A DNA stretch of 64,000 nucleotides from Nannocystis sp. RBIL2. Its GTDB lineage: Bacteria > Myxococcota_A > Polyangia > Nannocystales > Nannocystaceae. Both the position numbers and the translations under genes were made by a program. The stretch lies in contig NZ_JAPNJW010000002.1 of NCBI RefSeq assembly GCF_026626745.1, positions 1,382,151 to 1,446,150 on the forward strand, in the 5' to 3' direction. Numbering within the stretch: position 1 is the first letter of the stretch; each line of letters opens with the position of its first letter. Below are positions 53,806 to 60,170 of the stretch, one piece after another. The notes beneath the pieces were generated by a model that saw only the letters and a program-made list of their open reading frames with translations, was not told where the DNA came from and did no database searches.

Positions 53806-54042
53806 CCGAACGGCAGCTCAGGCGGGAACGCAGCTCGCCGGACGGATACGACCGGCGTCGGCACGGACGAGGAGCGCGGCGGAGAGGCGCACCTGGATCA
53901 TCTCCGGGTGCGCCGGGCTGAGCTCGAGCTCGAGAACCTCGACCGCGCGCGCGAGCAAGCCTTCGCGCGTGGGGCCGGGGTCGGTGGCGACGGCGAGGTT
54001 CATCAAGGTATAGCCGACCTCGCGATGCTCTCGCCCGAGCGG

Positions 54043-54238
54043 ATGGCCTCGGCCTCCGCGCCGCCGCGGTCGCCTGCGAGAGGCCGATGTAATTCCGAAT
54101 GAAGATGAGCCCACAGCCCCGTGAGCTCTCTCCCCTGGCCCCACGTCCGTGCGAAACTTTTCGACACAAGGAGACAGACACATGACTGCCCATAACTCGA
54201 AGGGCCCAGCCCCAATTCAGGTCCCGGCGTCCGACAGC
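54043..54238 (+). repeat. Modular 5' element, copy A
   Basis: Same architecture as copies B-D (hairpin, 24-bp core, MKM uORF, RBS, leader codons). Confidence 0.7.
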
Positions 54239-54445
54239 CCGCTCCAAGCAGGAGCCACCATCACCGGTGTTATCGTCAACATCGACCACCAATCACGTTG
54301 GGTCACCGTTCACGCTGGTCTGAAGTCTGAAGCACTTATCCCGATTGAGCAGTTCTACAACGATGCTGGCGAACTGACCATCAACGTTGGGGATGAAGTT
54401 CAGGTCGCTTTGGATTCGGTTGAAGATGGGTTCGGCGAGGTCTAG
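54182..54445 (+). CDS. Leader-fused fragment of ribosomal protein S1 (domain 1 only); probably non-functional as S1
   Basis: After the leader: [64 protein letters not shown], then a stop. Aligns residue-for-residue with E. coli S1 30-95 ([33 protein letters not shown]...DGFGET). Confidence 0.6.
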
Positions 54446-54699
54446 CTGATCGTGCGGCGCAAGTAGCGAGGCTCGCGGGGGCTGAAGCACGGCCGATGGG
54501 CCGAGACAAGCGCTGACGCGGGAATTTGCCGTGCCGGGGGCTGCCGTGGTCAACTCCACGGCATGCTCCTACCCGTGTCCTGGATCGACTTCGTCCTCGT
54601 CGGGTTCATCGCGCTCGACGCCGCGATCCAGTGGCGCCTGCTCTGCAGGCGCTCGGCATCAAGGCCGGCCGGCCTTCTTGACGGTCCGTTTCTCCGCTC

Positions 54700-54760
54700 G
54701 AGCTTGGGCCGATGTAATTTCGGATGAAGATGGATCCGATGCCGGTTGCGGTATGAAGGG
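54700..54760 (+). repeat. Modular 5' element, copy B (core plus short MKMDP uORF; no conserved leader)
   Basis: GGCCGATGTAATTTCGGATGAAGATGGATCCGATGCCGGTTGCG versus the consensus. Confidence 0.6.
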
Positions 54761-54847
54761 AAGCGCGACAGACAGCAACACCTTCGTCGCTCTTGCGACG
54801 CCGGACCGATTGTCGCCCCCGCTCGAGCAATCACCCGAGCACCAAAC

Positions 54848-55987
54848 ATGACAATGCCCCAGCTCCCCGAGGGAAACCCCTATTCCGGTCGGCCGAAGCA
54901 CTGCTTCTGGCAGCAGGCTGTGGCGGCCTGCGCGAACGACGGGGTCGATCCGGTCGTCGCCGTCCCCTTCCACATCACGCCCAAGGACCAAGTGGCCATG
55001 GCAGGGAGCTGCTTCGCTCAGCACCTCTCCCATCTTCTGGTTGCCGAGGGCTTCACACCCCTCTTCACCGAGCGCTTCATCGGCGCGCCCGGCACGCTGA
55101 ACGAGGGCTACGGCGTCTTTCCCGCGCGCTTCGGCAATGTCTACACGGCGCGCCAGCTCCTCCAGCTCTTCGACCGCGCTTATGGCCTGTTCCGGCCGCA
55201 GGATCGCTGCTGGCCGGGGCCCCTCGGGTTCATCGATCCTTTCCGGCCACGCATCCAGGCCGGTGGCTTCCCCAGCCGGGAGACGCTGGAGGCCGACCGA
55301 GCGCGCCACTTCGCCGCCACGCGACGGATGTTCGAGCAGTCCGACGTCTTCGTCTTCACCCTCGGGCTCACCGAATACTGGGCGGCCGAGGACGGCGCCG
55401 TCTTTCCCCTCGCGCCCGGCGTGGTGAGCCCCGGCCTCGATCCGCCGGGTAGTGGGCCTTATCGCTTCGGCAACGCTGGCGTGGCCGAGGTGGTGCGTGA
55501 CATTGAGGCCTTTCTCGGCAGGCTCCGCGAGGTGAACCGCCGCGTCCGTGTCGTGCTCACGGTCTCGCCCGTGCCGCTCCTGGCCACCTTCGAGGATCGG
55601 CACGTCCTGGTCTCCACGGTCGCTAGCAAGAGTATCCTGCGCGCCGCGGTCGACGAGATCTGCCGCGCCCATGATGATATCGCCTACTTTCCGTCCTTCG
55701 AAATCATCACTGGGCCGCAGTCGCGCGGGCGCTTCCACGGCCCCGATCTCCGCGAGGTGACGCCGGAGGGCGTGGGCTTCGTGCAGGCGGTCTTCCGCCG
55801 TCACTTCCTCGACCTCGGCGCGGGACAGGCGGAGGCCTCCGTCGTGCCGGCGCCTGCGCCAGAGGGTGACGCGTCCGATCCCGACCTCGCCGGGCGAGCA
55901 CGCCGTTACGCCACGCTCGCCCGCGTGATCTGCGACGAGGAGGCCATCATCCACCCCGGTCCGGCCGGCGGAGCAACGCGAACATGA
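54848..55987 (+). CDS. GSCFA-family protein
   Basis: MAGSCFAQHL motif near the N-terminus; about 380 aa. Confidence 0.6.
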   Translation: MTMPQLPEGNPYSGRPKHCFWQQAVAACANDGVDPVVAVPFHITPKDQVAMAGSCFAQHLSHLLVAEGFTPLFTERFIGAPGTLNEGYGVFPARFGNVYTARQLLQLFDRAYGLFRPQDRCWPGPLGFIDPFRPRIQAGGFPSRETLEADRARHFAATRRMFEQSDVFVFTLGLTEYWAAEDGAVFPLAPGVVSPGLDPPGSGPYRFGNAGVAEVVRDIEAFLGRLREVNRRVRVVLTVSPVPLLATFEDRHVLVSTVASKSILRAAVDEICRAHDDIAYFPSFEIITGPQSRGRFHGPDLREVTPEGVGFVQAVFRRHFLDLGAGQAEASVVPAPAPEGDASDPDLAGRARRYATLARVICDEEAIIHPGPAGGATRT

Positions 55988-58118: not shown

Positions 58119-58331
58119 CTTCATCGTCACTCGCCGAGCCGTCGCGCGCGCCCGCTAGGACACGACCGCGCCGCGTCCAGAGCGCCGGCTCGCAGCCCTC
58201 GCGCGTCAACCCCTCCCGCGTGCAGCGAGGCCGCCCTCGCCCTTGAGTTTCACGATTGGTTAATCCTTGCGCCGGATCCGAGAGTACGCCCGCGTCCCGC
58301 CGAGCACGGCCCGCGCGCCGGCCTCGAGCTG

Positions 58332-58700
58332 GATAGCCTCGGCCTCCGCGCCGCCGCGGTCGCCTGCGAGAGGCCGATGTAATTCCGAATGAAGATGAAT
58401 CCGCCGCCGGCGGGAGTATCACCGTGCGCGGGACGACGGGTTGTCCCGCGCTCCCCCACACCGTGGCCAGCTCCAGCCAAAGAGCCCTTGCGCCCTCTGG
58501 CGCTCCGGCGGTACGGCGCCGCTTCTGCTACAGTCACTCCTGGGTCAAACGACCTCGGGGACCCACCACCACCATCACATCGCGCCGCGGTCACGCAACG
58601 TTCGAACCAGGCGGGCAACGCGCCTGCCAGCAAGGAAACAGACACATGACTGACGTTAACTCCAAGGGCCCGGCCCCAACTCAGGTCCCAGCGGACATGA
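58332..58700 (+). repeat. Modular 5' element, copy C (hairpin, core, 86-codon uORF, RBS, leader)
   Basis: About 60 nt identical to copy A up to GAAGATGA. The uORF ends in KETDT and its TGA overlaps the main ATG. Confidence 0.7.
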
Positions 58701-59029
58701 CGGAGAAGCCCCCCGAGACGACGGCCGAAGTCCCAGAGCAGATCAAGCCCGACACCGTCGTTGCCGACGCCCGCGACAAGCTGCTGGCAGCCATCGGCGC
58801 CGAAGCCCAGCACCTCGCGGAGAAGTCCGCCGGCCAGGCATCCACCGCCCTGGCGGAGCTCGCACACGCCTTTGCCCTGGTGACCAGCCCCAACCCCGCA
58901 GCCGCCGGCTTCACCGCTGGTCGGCGATATGTGGAGGAGCTCGCCCCGCCTAACGGTTCTCCCATTGGCGATGACTACATCGTCATCGACGTGCCCAGGC
59001 CGGTCATCACCTACTATCCCCGTACCTGA
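58646..59029 (+). CDS. Leader-family small protein C (127 aa)
   Basis: Begins [15 protein letters not shown]. Its body, [27 protein letters not shown]..., recurs twice in protein D. Confidence 0.5.
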   Translation: [127 protein letters not shown]

Positions 59030-59325
59030 GGCCAGAACTGCGCCTGCGCAAGGCCGCGGCGGGCATGGCGAATCAGTCACCGCCCCAGAGCACGGGGCGG
59101 GATAAGAAGTCGCGGCCCCACTGGACTGCAGGTCGGGAACACCAACTACATGATCACCAAGGCCAAAGAACAGACCCGAGATCCGGGCCCGGAGCTGCGA
59201 GCCCGAGCCTGGTCATTCGGCGCGCAGCGCGTGACGGGAGGCATGGCGGGCGGCCTCGATCTGCACCGGCTCTGGGGAGCTGCCTTAGACGGTGGAGACG
59301 GACGCGCGCGCGCTCGCCGATGTAC

Positions 59326-59505
59326 TTCCGAATGAAGATGAATCCGGCGCCGGTGGGAGTATCAGTGCTCCGGCAAGGTCCCGTGAGCGGCTCGATTCCC
59401 CCCTGGCCTCACGCCTGTGTGAAACTCGACACAAGGAGACAGACACATGACTGACGTTAACTCCAAGGGCCCGGCCCCAATTCAGGTCCCGGTGGCCGAC
59501 AGCGC
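59326..59505 (+). repeat. Modular 5' element, copy D (core, 40-codon uORF, RBS, leader; hairpin absent)
   Basis: CGATGTACTTCCGAATGAAGATGAATCCGGCGCCGGTGGGAGTATCA...ACACAAGGAGACAGACACATGACTGACGTTAACTCCAAGGGCCCGGCCCCAATTCAGGTCCC. Confidence 0.7.
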
Positions 59506-60001
59506 GATCCCGGAGGCCGAGGGCGGCCCTGCGGCACCCACCTCGAACGCCGTCGCCGACGCCCGCGACAAGCTTCTGGCAGCCATTGGCGCCGAAGCCC
59601 AGCTCGTTGCGGAGAAGTCCGCCGGGGATGCGTCCAAGCCGCTCGCGGAACTTGCCCGCGCCTTCAACAATGTGACCATCAAGAACATGATCACCGGTAC
59701 GTCGCAAGCGGACGTCGCCCTGCTCGTGGTGCCTGCAGACCGGGGAGGATTCGAGGGCGCCTTCGCGCGTGAAACCCAAGTGAGGCTGTTGACGGCCATC
59801 GGCGGCGAAGCCCAGCACCTCGCGGAGAAGTCCGCCGGCCAGGCATCCACCGCCCTGGCGGAGCTCGCACACGCCTTTACGCTAGTAACCAGCCCCAGCC
59901 CCGCAGCCGCACGGATCGCGCTCGCGCCCGCAAGCGGCCTCACATTGATGAACGAAGTGGCGATCGACGGGAGTGTGACGGTCACGGTTAGATATCTCTG
60001 A
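59447..60001 (+). CDS. Leader-family mosaic protein D containing an EF1A-type GTPase fragment
   Basis: [37 protein letters not shown] matches the eukaryote/archaea EF1A motif ([26 protein letters not shown]..QTREH), not bacterial EF-Tu (NMITGAAQMDGAILVV). It is flanked by two copies of the protein-C-like segment. Confidence 0.5.
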   Translation: [184 protein letters not shown]

Positions 60002-60170
60002 GCGTTCGCCGGGGCGGCGTTCTTCGCGTCTGTCGCCCCCCGAAGGTCTTCGGCGACGGCGCAAAGATCGACATCCGCGACTGTGCGGACGTTCCTCGCC
60101 CCAGGCGAGCACCTCGTCAGCGCGCACCCCGGTCGGAGCGAGTTTGGCGCGGCTGGCGTATGCTTCGTAG

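Follow-up and report, generated by a model that had tools for sequence, protein, structure and literature searches.

Why does the same start region stand in front of unrelated gene bodies within 6 kb of the Nannocystis sp. RBIL2 genome? The window analyzed here, a stretch of 64,000 nt, contains at 54.0-60.0 kb a tandem array of three genes (A, C and D) together with a solo promoter-like copy (B), all on the + strand. Genes A, C and D have a common start region but differing bodies. The original prediction regarded this region as a mobile expression module that recombines onto captured coding fragments. A truncated IS66-family transposase gene (52612..53805, + strand), of which only the C-terminal half is left (Pfam DDE_Tnp_IS66, E 3e-29, profile positions 167-283 of 284), marks a plastic region directly 5′ of the array. 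A second IS66 remnant is located at 44085-44459. No reverse transcriptase (RT) and no secretion or injection genes were found in the 64-kb window.

The recurring region is centered on an AT-rich 24-nt core, CGATGTAATTCCGAATGAAGATGA, which was found in copies A (54085..54108), B (54710..54733), C (58375..58398) and D (59318..59341) with 0, 3, 0 and 1 mismatches, respectively, while 100 shuffles gave an expectation of zero matches. The core is presumed to be a promoter or operator; a sigma-70-type match was looked for in it and not found. The 64-kb window contains no inverted-repeat partner, no minus-strand copy and no fifth copy of the core. A search of 185,579 species-representative genomes returned only two unrelated chance matches and no real copy outside the Nannocystis array, and the core is not conserved 5′ of related genes at actinomycete loci. 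The core appears local to Nannocystis and is best read as a duplicated promoter/5′UTR.

The other elements of the proposed four-copy composite are not all present in every copy. The GC-rich segment left of the core, described as a hairpin in all four, is shared only by A (54041..54084) and C (58331..58374), with 43/44 nt identical; the A-B, A-D and C-D comparisons give ~28/44, which is background. Its folding energy does not stand out (z -1.2 and -2.1), and neither significant RNA structure nor an Rfam match was found for the upstream element. The strong RBS stood up in three copies: AAGGAG with its spacer and ATG (54168..54184 in gene A, 24 nt identical to D) forms AAGGAGACAGACACATG, which is the same in A and D, has one mismatch in C and is absent in B. 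The leader-coding stretch also occurs three times (54194, 58658 and 59459; 0 expected).

Less remains of the upstream ORF (uORF). Its start codon lies inside the core in 4/4 copies, as predicted, but the D frame differs from that of A and C, so that homologous DNA gives different peptides, with only MKM(S/D/N)P in common. The uORFs of copies A, B, C and D measure 28, 10, 86 and 40 codons, instead of the 26, 86 and 40 given originally. They were said to end always on or 3 nt after the main start codon, yet in copy B the stop is 92 nt 5′ of the GSCFA start, and elsewhere the apparent conservation is trivial because ACATGACTGA has TGA in both non-coding frames. Neither peptide nor frame is conserved, and the chance probability of an open frame in all three copies is ~0.05. 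These results, with the lack of significant RNA structure, give no support to uORF coupling or leader-peptide control.

Gene A (54182..54445; 87 aa) consists of a 20-codon leader and an S1 cassette, without a hairpin module, and is annotated by NCBI as S1 RNA-binding domain-containing protein in Nannocystis sp. ILAH1. Residues 22-86 are S1 domain 1 (E 1e-18 versus residues 19-81 of E. coli S1; Pfam S1, E 3e-5), in agreement with the predicted S1 fragment. The captured piece (54242..54439) corresponds to codons 18-83 of rpsA from Pseudomonas, its nearest relative, and is 84% identical in nt and 88% in aa to a genuine Pseudomonas rpsA (L008). Its GC and GC3 are 0.53 and 0.58, against 0.80-0.87 for host genes. 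The same cassette occurs in Nocardia (L006). It had been asked whether a full-length S1 gene carries the leader natively; no natural S1 was found to do so. Core B, 115 nt 5′ of the GSCFA start, has no RBS, leader or module and, as originally described, precedes an operon of GSCFA, WcbI-like and GT4 genes (54848-55987, 55984-56871 and 56880-58118; Pfam E 1e-44, 2e-24 and 3e-10), which is host-like in composition (GC3 0.80-0.87).

Gene C (58646..59029) encodes 127 aa comprising a leader, a linker, a hairpin module and a tail cassette; in the NCBI annotation it begins at an internal Met, giving 110 aa (P0007). The alpha-hairpin module of 39 codons (58769..58885) is predicted by AF2 to form helices at residues 37-60 and 65-80. 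It is 82% identical in nt to a Streptomyces module with pS 0.29, which supports horizontal transfer. The tail cassette (58910..59026) is also present in five Streptomyces-type members (P0036, P0039, P0041, P0042 and P0046), and its comparison with L009 gives pN 0.13 and pS 0.77.

Gene D (59447..60001; 184 aa), whose product is 100% identical to P0001 of Nannocystis sp. ILAH1 (locus tag OV203_34040), is the mosaic that the original prediction described. After the leader, two C-like repeats (family D1), hairpin modules 1 (59561..59677) and 2 (59774..59890), flank a captured EF1A piece of 32 residues (59678..59773), and a tail follows. Residues 77-113 match residues 97-133 of a/eEF1A (E 6e-5), and 28/29 residues are identical to apicomplexan EF1A. 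This cassette recurs in P0002, P0003 and P0064. Module 2 (93% identity to the C module over 126 nt; 126/143) is evidently a recent gene-conversion partner of the C module. A single start region, made up of promoter-like core, RBS and a leader of ~20 codons, is joined in frame with unrelated bodies; S1 and EF1A, two of these bodies, are captured foreign coding fragments.

These genes belong to a wider family. The gene D search returned 30-odd relatives in Streptomyces, Kitasatospora and Embleya, and at a threshold of E<=1e-3 gene C matched 137 representative clusters, in some of which a single protein contains as many as 5 modules; the family size is accordingly given as at least 137 representative clusters. 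Streptomyces, Kitasatospora, Embleya and Nocardia account for nearly the whole set of clusters, the sampled members come from Streptomyces, Embleya, Nocardia and Nannocystis, and at 90% identity nearly all clusters are singletons. This is a large, undescribed and unannotated family of hypervariable mosaic proteins. Its unit is a disordered leader, which carries EGIQQIPAQITV in Streptomyces, a ~40-aa alpha-hairpin module and an exchangeable cassette. In two alignments (A2 and A3) the leader and hairpin are conserved and the tails are unalignable, and AF2 predicts two helices with disorder on either side. What recurs across genera is the coding parts, namely the leader and the alpha-hairpin module, the latter having been missed originally. 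The conserved part has no match in Pfam, NCBIfam, PADLOC or PDB sequences, and no signal peptide was seen. The original prediction had set against itself a tandem duplication of a single gene carrying an element found nowhere else. Genes A, C and D are local tandem paralogues with a core that occurs nowhere else, but the family to which they belong, in which bodies are swapped, has a wide distribution.

A Pfam census of 143 members identified flagellin in 4, RRM in 2, and VgrG OB domain, S1 and porin in 1 each. Borrelia FlaB is the closest match to the flagellin cassette, with 57-60% identity across 97% of the query, P0096 carries an EF-G cassette (E 4e-7), and RRM and Rhs-core pieces are also among the cassettes, the latter in two members, with a VgrG OB piece in one. 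As most tails have no recognizable origin, the description 'foreign abundant proteins' fits a minority, ~10/143 by Pfam. No conserved partner gene was found at 8 family loci, and the family is not linked to an RT, a recombinase, a RiPP enzyme or a secretion partner. Lectin or trypsin-like genes are located near some family loci; the jacalin protein of the window has no trypsin-like match.

Recombination between the copies, as had been suggested, is seen in a mosaic identity pattern: along seven segments of the unit the nearest pair of A, C and D is AC, CD, AD, AD, CD, AD and C-D2. This alternation of nearest neighbors points to gene conversion. The pieces shared across genera evolve as coding sequence (dN/dS 0.13-0.5). 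The dN/dS is 0.13 for the S1 and 0.17 for the EF1A cassette and 0.2-0.7 for hairpin modules. If the captures were independent events, part of the low values between cassettes of different genera could stem from divergence in different donors. Within the family there is a single clean pair: L003 gene 2 and its orthologue at L013 have no frameshift in 460 codons and a dN/dS of 0.47 overall and 0.31 in the flagellin part, with relaxed values of 0.3-1.0 by segment.

The explanation that we consider probable, though far from assured, is a hypervariable, horizontally spread mosaic family, here an array with a duplicated 5′ region and swapped cassettes encoding a handle plus payload. The recurring 5′ module would be the array's own promoter/5′UTR, RBS and leader, multiplied by local duplication, and short-tract gene conversion would keep the 5′ regions patchily similar. 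The bodies would differ because recombination exchanged cassettes at the conserved repeats that encode leader and hairpin, and these repeats may serve as portable homology arms. The cassette pool would be common to Nannocystis and actinomycetes, from which the family probably entered Nannocystis, and it includes domain-length segments of abundant proteins of distant organisms, such as Pseudomonas-type S1 and EF-G, apicomplexan-type EF1A, Borrelia-like flagellin, RRM and Rhs core. Anatomy, family membership, foreign descent of the pieces, their evolution as coding sequence and the mosaic pattern are shown by the results above; the roles of the parts and the route from actinomycetes are inferred. 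The leader and hairpin may form a constant handle by which the protein docks, assembles or is exported, with the cassette as a variable protein-level payload. Our best guess is a constant handle with a variable protein-mimic payload, the foreign pieces probably interfering with, or baiting, molecules of other organisms; none of the 8 loci offered a conserved partner as a receptor for this handle.

Recombination debris, in which the 5′ end of a small gene was joined in frame by accident to any DNA arriving 3′ of it in a plastic, IS-flanked region, leaving functionless bodies, is an unlikely account. The two IS66 remnants, the IS21, ISAzo13-type and rve transposase genes near family genes in L003, L005, L009 and L010, the almost universal singleton clusters, the dN/dS of 0.5-1.0 in some L003/L013 segments, the module-less gene A and the solo core B are consistent with it, but debris would not be expected to recur across genera with similar boundaries and mainly synonymous differences, to keep 460 codons free of frameshifts, to retain a strong RBS and intact ORFs ending directly after the cassettes, or to be maintained in >137 clusters. 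Equally doubtful is RNA-mediated capture, in which the foreign pieces are cDNA of abundant mRNAs made by a template-switching RT; concerning only cassette origin, it is compatible with the main explanation. It would account for the bias to S1, EF-G, EF1A, flagellin, porin and RRM, recognizable cassettes being mostly from very abundant proteins, and a group II intron RT lies 1.1 kb 5′ of the family gene in L009. However, neither the window nor 6 other loci contain an RT, mRNA of foreign donors would not be in the cell, the abundance bias perhaps comes from detection, since conserved proteins are more readily recognized, and the captures look old (dS 0.5-1.3), so that no junction signature is left.

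It is quite improbable that the products are RiPP-type precursors, with leader and hairpin as a long recognition leader as in Nif11/NHLP, the tail as core peptide and the enzyme encoded elsewhere. The ~80-aa conserved N-terminal part, the 30-50-aa hypervariable tails and several tandem paralogues per genome with strain-specific repertoires resemble such precursors, but a modifying enzyme or transporter is adjacent in 0/8 loci, the tails are not rich in Cys/Ser/Thr, several 'cores', among them S1, RRM and flagellin, are folded domains 60-280 aa long, modules are also internal, flanking cassettes, and no Pfam or NCBIfam leader family matches. The original proposal of an autonomous mobile DNA cassette (hairpin, core, uORF, RBS and leader) with uORF coupling is largely refuted and now very improbable: four cores in 6 kb, one ahead of an unrelated operon, and the uniform uORF start speak for it, and the results on repeat partners, genome-wide and actinomycete distribution, hairpin, uORF and RNA structure given above against it. 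Least credible of all is a nucleic-acid array in which hairpin-coding repeats and foreign inserts act as RNA/DNA repeats and 'spacers' against foreign transcripts. Gene D does have a repeat-insert-repeat order and inserts derive from foreign essential genes, but they are always sense and in frame, and no structured repeat RNA or nuclease partner was found. Moreover, at 73-84% nt identity and pS 0.5-0.6 their divergence is mostly synonymous, by which guide complementarity is lost and protein preserved.

The mosaic family with handle and payload can be compared with known variable systems. The original prediction did not recognize the array as an integron attC, a DGR, a shufflon or a CDI/Rhs orphan array, and indeed it is none of these. 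Rhs/CDI/LXG orphan-cassette toxins likewise have a constant N-terminus with recombination-swapped unrelated C-termini, tandem extra copies, strain-specific repertoires and homology-arm sequence; the Rhs-core pieces in two family members and the VgrG OB piece in one are further points in common. In contrast, the family proteins are tiny (~100 aa), without a large upstream 'main' gene, toxin domains, immunity genes or a linked secretion system; their payloads include housekeeping-protein fragments, and promoter, RBS and ATG come separately with every copy. Prochlorosin/Nif11-type RiPP precursors have a conserved long leader, a hypervariable core and many paralogues with strain-specific tails. 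The family shares this leader-tail organization and the many paralogues but differs in lacking a linked maturase and a leader-family match and in having whole folded domains as tails and internal modules. In the pilE/pilS and vlsE systems, variable segments between conserved ones mediate gene conversion, and the family similarly has conserved-flanked variable segments in mosaic tandem copies. Unlike in those systems, its variable parts are mutually unrelated rather than allelic variants, and none of the gene copies here is silent, as every one has expression signals.

Effector-associated domains (EADs) of conflict systems in multicellular bacteria are small all-alpha non-enzymatic adaptors with highly variable partners and many paralogues, and are especially frequent in actinomycetes and myxobacteria according to Kaur et al. 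(2020; PMC7159879). The family resembles them in its small alpha terminal adaptor, variable partners and many paralogues per genome, but no Pfam EAD model matches it, no cognate NTPase, vWA or GTPase core with the same domain was seen nearby, and the partners are not effector enzymes. A ~40-aa Ala/Leu-rich alpha-hairpin and a disordered N-terminus are also features of the umbrella-toxin adaptor UmbB with its ALF alpha-hairpin repeats in Streptomyces (PMC13274773). The lectin or trypsin-like genes near some family loci are a further resemblance, and the lack of a trypsin-like match in the jacalin protein of the window is a difference. Run against all PDB sequences, the family profile gave a single spurious match (E 0.81) and did not hit any chain labeled as part of an umbrella toxin. 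The umbrella toxin is a Streptomyces system, whereas the present family is also found in Nannocystis.

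The original prediction saw four copies (A to D) of one composite 5′ module, made up of a GC hairpin, a 24-nt core, a uORF, an RBS and a leader, at 54.0-60.0 kb of the window. The core does recur four times, at 54085, 54710, 58375 and 59318, always on the plus strand and with ≤3 mismatches, against 0 occurrences expected from shuffled sequence. The composite is not uniform across the four copies. The stretch from the RBS to the ATG is identical upstream of gene A (54182-54445) and gene D (59447-60001) and has one mismatch upstream of gene C (58646-59029), and the leader-coding stretch is present in the same three copies, but copy B lacks the RBS, the leader and the α-hairpin module. 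The GC hairpin is found in A and C, which match at 43/44 nt, but not in B and D, where identity is at background level; its stability is unremarkable (folding z-scores of −1.2 and −2.1). Copy B does precede the GSCFA, WcbI-like and GT4 genes as proposed, and looks like a solo copy of the core now fronting the GSCFA operon.

The core forms an AT-rich island within 70% GC DNA, 74-248 nt upstream of the start codons, and is most simply read as a putative promoter or operator. Promoter and terminator scans of the 5′ region gave nothing significant, including no sigma-70-type consensus. A cis-regulatory RNA such as a riboswitch, leader or attenuator is not supported, as the 5′ region had no Rfam match at the gathering threshold and the 5′UTRs no significant structure (folding z-scores of −1.8, +0.2 and −1.5). 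A consensus scan marked terminator-like hairpins on the minus strand at 54107-54128 and 58401-58413, in which the reverse-complemented core supplies the ‘T-tail’; these are probably due to chance, since five terminator-like sites were found with 2.5 expected. ORFs ending in the core (..GRCNSE-stop) were discarded as genes because they are devoid of the coding signature of GC by codon position.

The uORFs, 28, 10, 86 and 40 codons long in A, B, C and D, share their MKMxP start as predicted, but MKMxP is the sole common part of the peptides, and neither the frame nor the stop position is conserved. The B uORF stops 92 nt ahead of the GSCFA start. The frame of the D uORF is not that of A and C, so that homologous DNA is translated differently in A and D. 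The seemingly conserved stop arises because ACATGACTGA holds TGA in both alternative frames, and the joint chance of all three spacers being open is ~0.05. Control by a leader peptide or uORF is not supported.

The proposed mobility of the 5′ module was not borne out either. No inverted partner of the core exists in the window at ≤3 mismatches, and the left boundaries of the repeat differ among copies. An IS- or MITE-type element, which should show terminal inverted repeats and dispersed, sharp-ended copies, is thus disfavored. A degenerate-core scan of 185,579 representative genomes, a set that excludes the source genome of the window, returned two chance matches only (Saprospiraceae and an alphaproteobacterial MAG), and the upstream DNA is not conserved ahead of the related genes in Streptomyces or Nocardia. 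By these tests, what the window contains is a tandem array that recombines, not a mobile 5′ element.

Recombination within the array is apparent from segment-wise identity among A, C and D, as the nearest neighbor alters along the unit. The closest pair is A-C left of the core (43/44), C-D right of the core (21/25), A-D in the pre-RBS segment (39/50) and from the RBS to the ATG (20/20), C-D again in leader codons 2-15 (40/42), A-D in codons 16-21 (14/18), and C with the second module of D in the module itself (126/143, compared with 109/143 for the first). A single duplication history does not account for this pattern; it is explained if the units were duplicated locally and short tracts then underwent gene conversion repeatedly. 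Gene D is a mosaic as the first reading had it, two C-like 126-nt repeats surrounding a piece of EF1A. The leader-coding and hairpin-coding repeats may serve as homology arms for cassette exchange.

The exchangeable bodies, or cassettes, are in part recognizable. Residues 22-86 of A match S1 domain 1 (E ~1e-18, with a Pfam S1 match as well), confirming the predicted S1 fragment; the piece corresponds to codons 18-83 of Pseudomonas rpsA, with 88% amino acid and 84% nucleotide identity to a genuine cmk-rpsA locus, and its GC3 is 0.58 versus 0.80-0.87 in host genes. The best natural S1 matches are all gammaproteobacterial, and none of them carries the leader. Gene A is not a genuine rpsA, given that it holds these codons only, is fused to the leader and has its nearest relatives in Pseudomonas, not in Myxococcota. 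The predicted EF1A-type fragment was also confirmed: residues 77-113 of D match EF1A residues ~97-133 (E 6e-5), with 28/29 residues identical to apicomplexan EF1A. The same EF1A piece is common to D and the related proteins P0002, P0003 and P0064, an S1 piece to A and the Nocardia protein P0096, which also has an EF-G piece (E 4e-7), and the C tail to five Streptomyces-type members. In other members the bodies comprise the larger part of a flagellin, an RRM, an Rhs-associated core, a VgrG-type OB domain and a porin piece. The flagellin cassette is nearest to Borrelia/Borreliella FlaB (57-60% identity over 97%) and occurs also in proteins of Streptosporangium, Saccharothrix and Sorangium; in some proteins it directly follows an NSKGPAKVQL leader with the α-hairpin absent, as in gene A of the window. 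Judged by these sequence matches, some cassettes are of foreign origin. An ‘Hsp70’ piece (VGGSSRIP) seen by eye was unsupported on checking, and our own scan did not recover the ‘CS1 fimbrial’ domain (PF04449) that a precomputed annotation had assigned. Residues 59-87 of the Nocardia protein P0061 are GroEL-like (SDFDRERLAER vs SDYDREKLQER), but not significantly so (E 0.79). In P0032, from an 886-nt ENA contig, the EF1A piece is joined to another stretch, which we take by eye alone to resemble the flavoprotein subunit of succinate dehydrogenase.

Protein D matches OV203_34040, a hypothetical protein from Nannocystis sp. ILAH1, at 100% identity. C is encoded next to it and is publicly annotated from an internal Met that leaves out window positions 58646-58696, so that the leader has been missed. 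Outside the EF1A piece, D is related to hypothetical proteins encoded by Streptomyces, Kitasatospora and Embleya. When C was used as the query, an exhaustive search matched 137 representative clusters, some with up to five conserved stretches; those members that were sampled belong to Streptomyces, Embleya and Nocardia. Nearly all 90%-identity clusters are singletons, which indicates that repertoires are strain-specific. In alignments, a variable acidic N-terminus closes in the leader motif (EGIQQIPAQITV or DGRGPAPITV, among variants) and is followed by a conserved stretch of 39 residues and an unalignable tail. For the conserved stretch AlphaFold predicts an α-hairpin (helices 37-60 and 65-80, pLDDT 75-87) with disorder on either side. 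Multi-unit proteins may have formed by fusion of tandem genes; in P0005 and P0006 the internal segments look like N-termini that lack the Met.

The conserved part had no match in Pfam, NCBIfam, PADLOC or PDB sequences, and it was likewise unmatched when Pfam was run on 143 members. A known anti-phage defence or phage family is unsupported: PADLOC gave 0 matches to the family, tblastn against phage and plasmid collections and a search of IMG/VR did not find it, and PHROGs matched just two uncharacterized families, both weakly (E 1e-4 and 3e-5). No description turned up in the literature when it was searched by motif and topic, and the family is apparently unannotated and undescribed. Public names given to the chimeras, such as ‘S1 RNA-binding domain-containing protein’, ‘flagellin’, ‘adenylate kinase’ and ‘RHS repeat-associated core domain-containing protein’, are misleading, the last three being given in non-flagellated actinomycetes. 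Cassettes are shared across phyla; the C module is 82% identical at the nucleotide level to a Streptomyces module. Nannocystis probably acquired the family from actinomycetes.

Sequences of the array and the family evolve as coding sequence. Between Nannocystis and Nocardia the S1 cassette has a dN/dS of 0.13 (dS 1.25), and between Nannocystis and Streptomyces the EF1A cassette has 0.17 (dS 0.86), low cross-genus values that could partly represent evolution in the donors if the captures were independent. Both S1 cassettes carry shared derived residues, in a 13-aa stretch, that differ from the Pseudomonas sequence; together with the similar boundaries, these residues favor a shared cassette pool. 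The hairpin modules have dN/dS of 0.2-0.7, and the C tail compared with its Streptomyces counterpart has pN 0.13 and pS 0.77. Gene 2 of locus L003 and a gene of the same architecture at L013 align over 460 codons without a frameshift, with dN/dS of 0.47 overall and 0.31 in the flagellin part.

The surroundings of the array and of related genes were also compared. Two IS66-family remnants at 44085-44459 (a TnpB_IS66-like piece, E 3.5e-7) and 52612-53805 (the C-terminal half of a DDE transposase) bracket a stretch of ~8 kb that ends shortly before the array and contains a jacalin-lectin gene (48598-50151) and an OsmC gene. The minus strand of 53818-54000, upstream of A, has a decayed TPR-type repeat-like reading (..HREVGYTLMNLA..HPEMIQVRLSAAL..) with codon-position GC periodicity and no Pfam support. 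About 0.9 kb downstream of D lies a truncated terpene-synthase-like ORF (60862-61533; Terpene_syn_C_2, E 5e-7). Streptomyces sp. NBC_00536 (locus L009) has a Terpene_syn_C_2 gene of 182 aa (16854-17402) ~6 kb from its family gene; this recurrence may be a coincidence, as tblastx finds no direct similarity between the two. At the same locus a group II intron RT (7405-8835) precedes the family gene by 1.1 kb and a profilin-domain protein (14320-14703) is encoded 4 kb downstream; profilin is a eukaryotic actin-binding fold. Several family genes have a lectin or protease gene no more than ~5 kb away, namely the jacalin gene of the window, ricin-B genes in two Streptomyces loci (L009 4441-5004; L011 9107-9619 and 10478-10984) and Trypsin_2 in another (L003 7820-8734). 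At L013 a Phage_sheath_1 gene (6389-7534) is located 150 nt from P0040, a flagellin/Rhs-core member, close to the contig end, so that the remainder of any injection-system cluster would lie beyond it. Apart from the family genes, no neighbor gene of the window is shared with six actinomycete loci, and no partner gene conserved across the family loci was found. At 284-7507 the window has clustered genes for a GT2, an SDR reductase, an aromatic amino-acid lyase and a fusion of an AMP-binding enzyme with a FabA/ApeI-like dehydratase; these seem to be a portion of a locus for small-molecule biosynthesis that has no link to the array.

Repeats joined to variable bodies recall several known systems, and no RT, recombinase, injection-system or maturase gene is present in the 64-kb window. 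The original prediction did not recognize the array as an integron attC, a DGR or a CDI/Rhs orphan array, and it does not match any of these kinds. A DGR would entail an RVT domain, absent from every sizeable ORF of the window, and an adenine bias, absent from the differences between repeats: C and the second module of D differ by nine mismatches (G>A 4, A>G 2, C>G 2, C>T 1), and C and the first by 36 distributed over all bases. For an integron cassette array, the window has no integrase domain, the repeats are coding, and each gene copy has its own RBS and ATG, unlike promoterless integron cassettes. For a Rhs/CDI orphan array, a large upstream rhs or cdiA gene is absent from the window, and the bodies, made up of S1 and EF1A pieces and short tails, are not toxins; paired small genes are likewise absent.

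Among systems that the family itself might belong to, RiPP precursors are disfavored by the lack of a maturase or transporter in eight loci and by tails that are in some cases folded domains. EAD adaptors are disfavored as none of the 143 members matched an EAD model and no NTPase/vWA core gene lies nearby. Umbrella toxins (UmbB/UmbC, with ALF repeats) were suggested by the neighboring lectin and trypsin genes, but this idea was dropped after a profile search of all PDB sequences gave a single, spurious match (E 0.81) and no trypsin-lectin UmbA was found in the window. The case for contractile injection, consisting of the L013 sheath gene, one VgrG-OB cassette and two Rhs-core cassettes, is too thin.

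The recombining tandem array would belong to a family in which soil actinomycetes and a few myxobacteria keep domain-sized pieces of abundant foreign proteins, taken from competitors, prey, eukaryotic hosts or predators, for ‘fragment capture and display’; the pieces would be joined in frame to a constant leader and α-hairpin, selected, shuffled and horizontally exchanged, a reading that we put forward as possible but doubtful. In its fragment capture the family has a substantial chance of being new in kind. With low confidence, the proteins may be viewed as a constant handle with a variable protein payload, in which the foreign pieces would mimic proteins to affect other organisms. If the reading holds, the best-studied antibiotic producers would have hundreds of strain-specific members whose payloads include conserved pieces of ribosomal, translation-factor and flagellar proteins of other organisms, a heritable library of mimics to interfere with or sense foreign cells. 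It would also provide a tractable bacterial case of exon-shuffling-like gene birth from captured fragments, and an example of cross-phylum and cross-domain fragment transfer, possibly with protein mimicry in interference between organisms. In its architecture, the array family resembles polymorphic effectors and hypervariable precursors, which likewise have a constant N-terminal part and a swapped C-terminal part.
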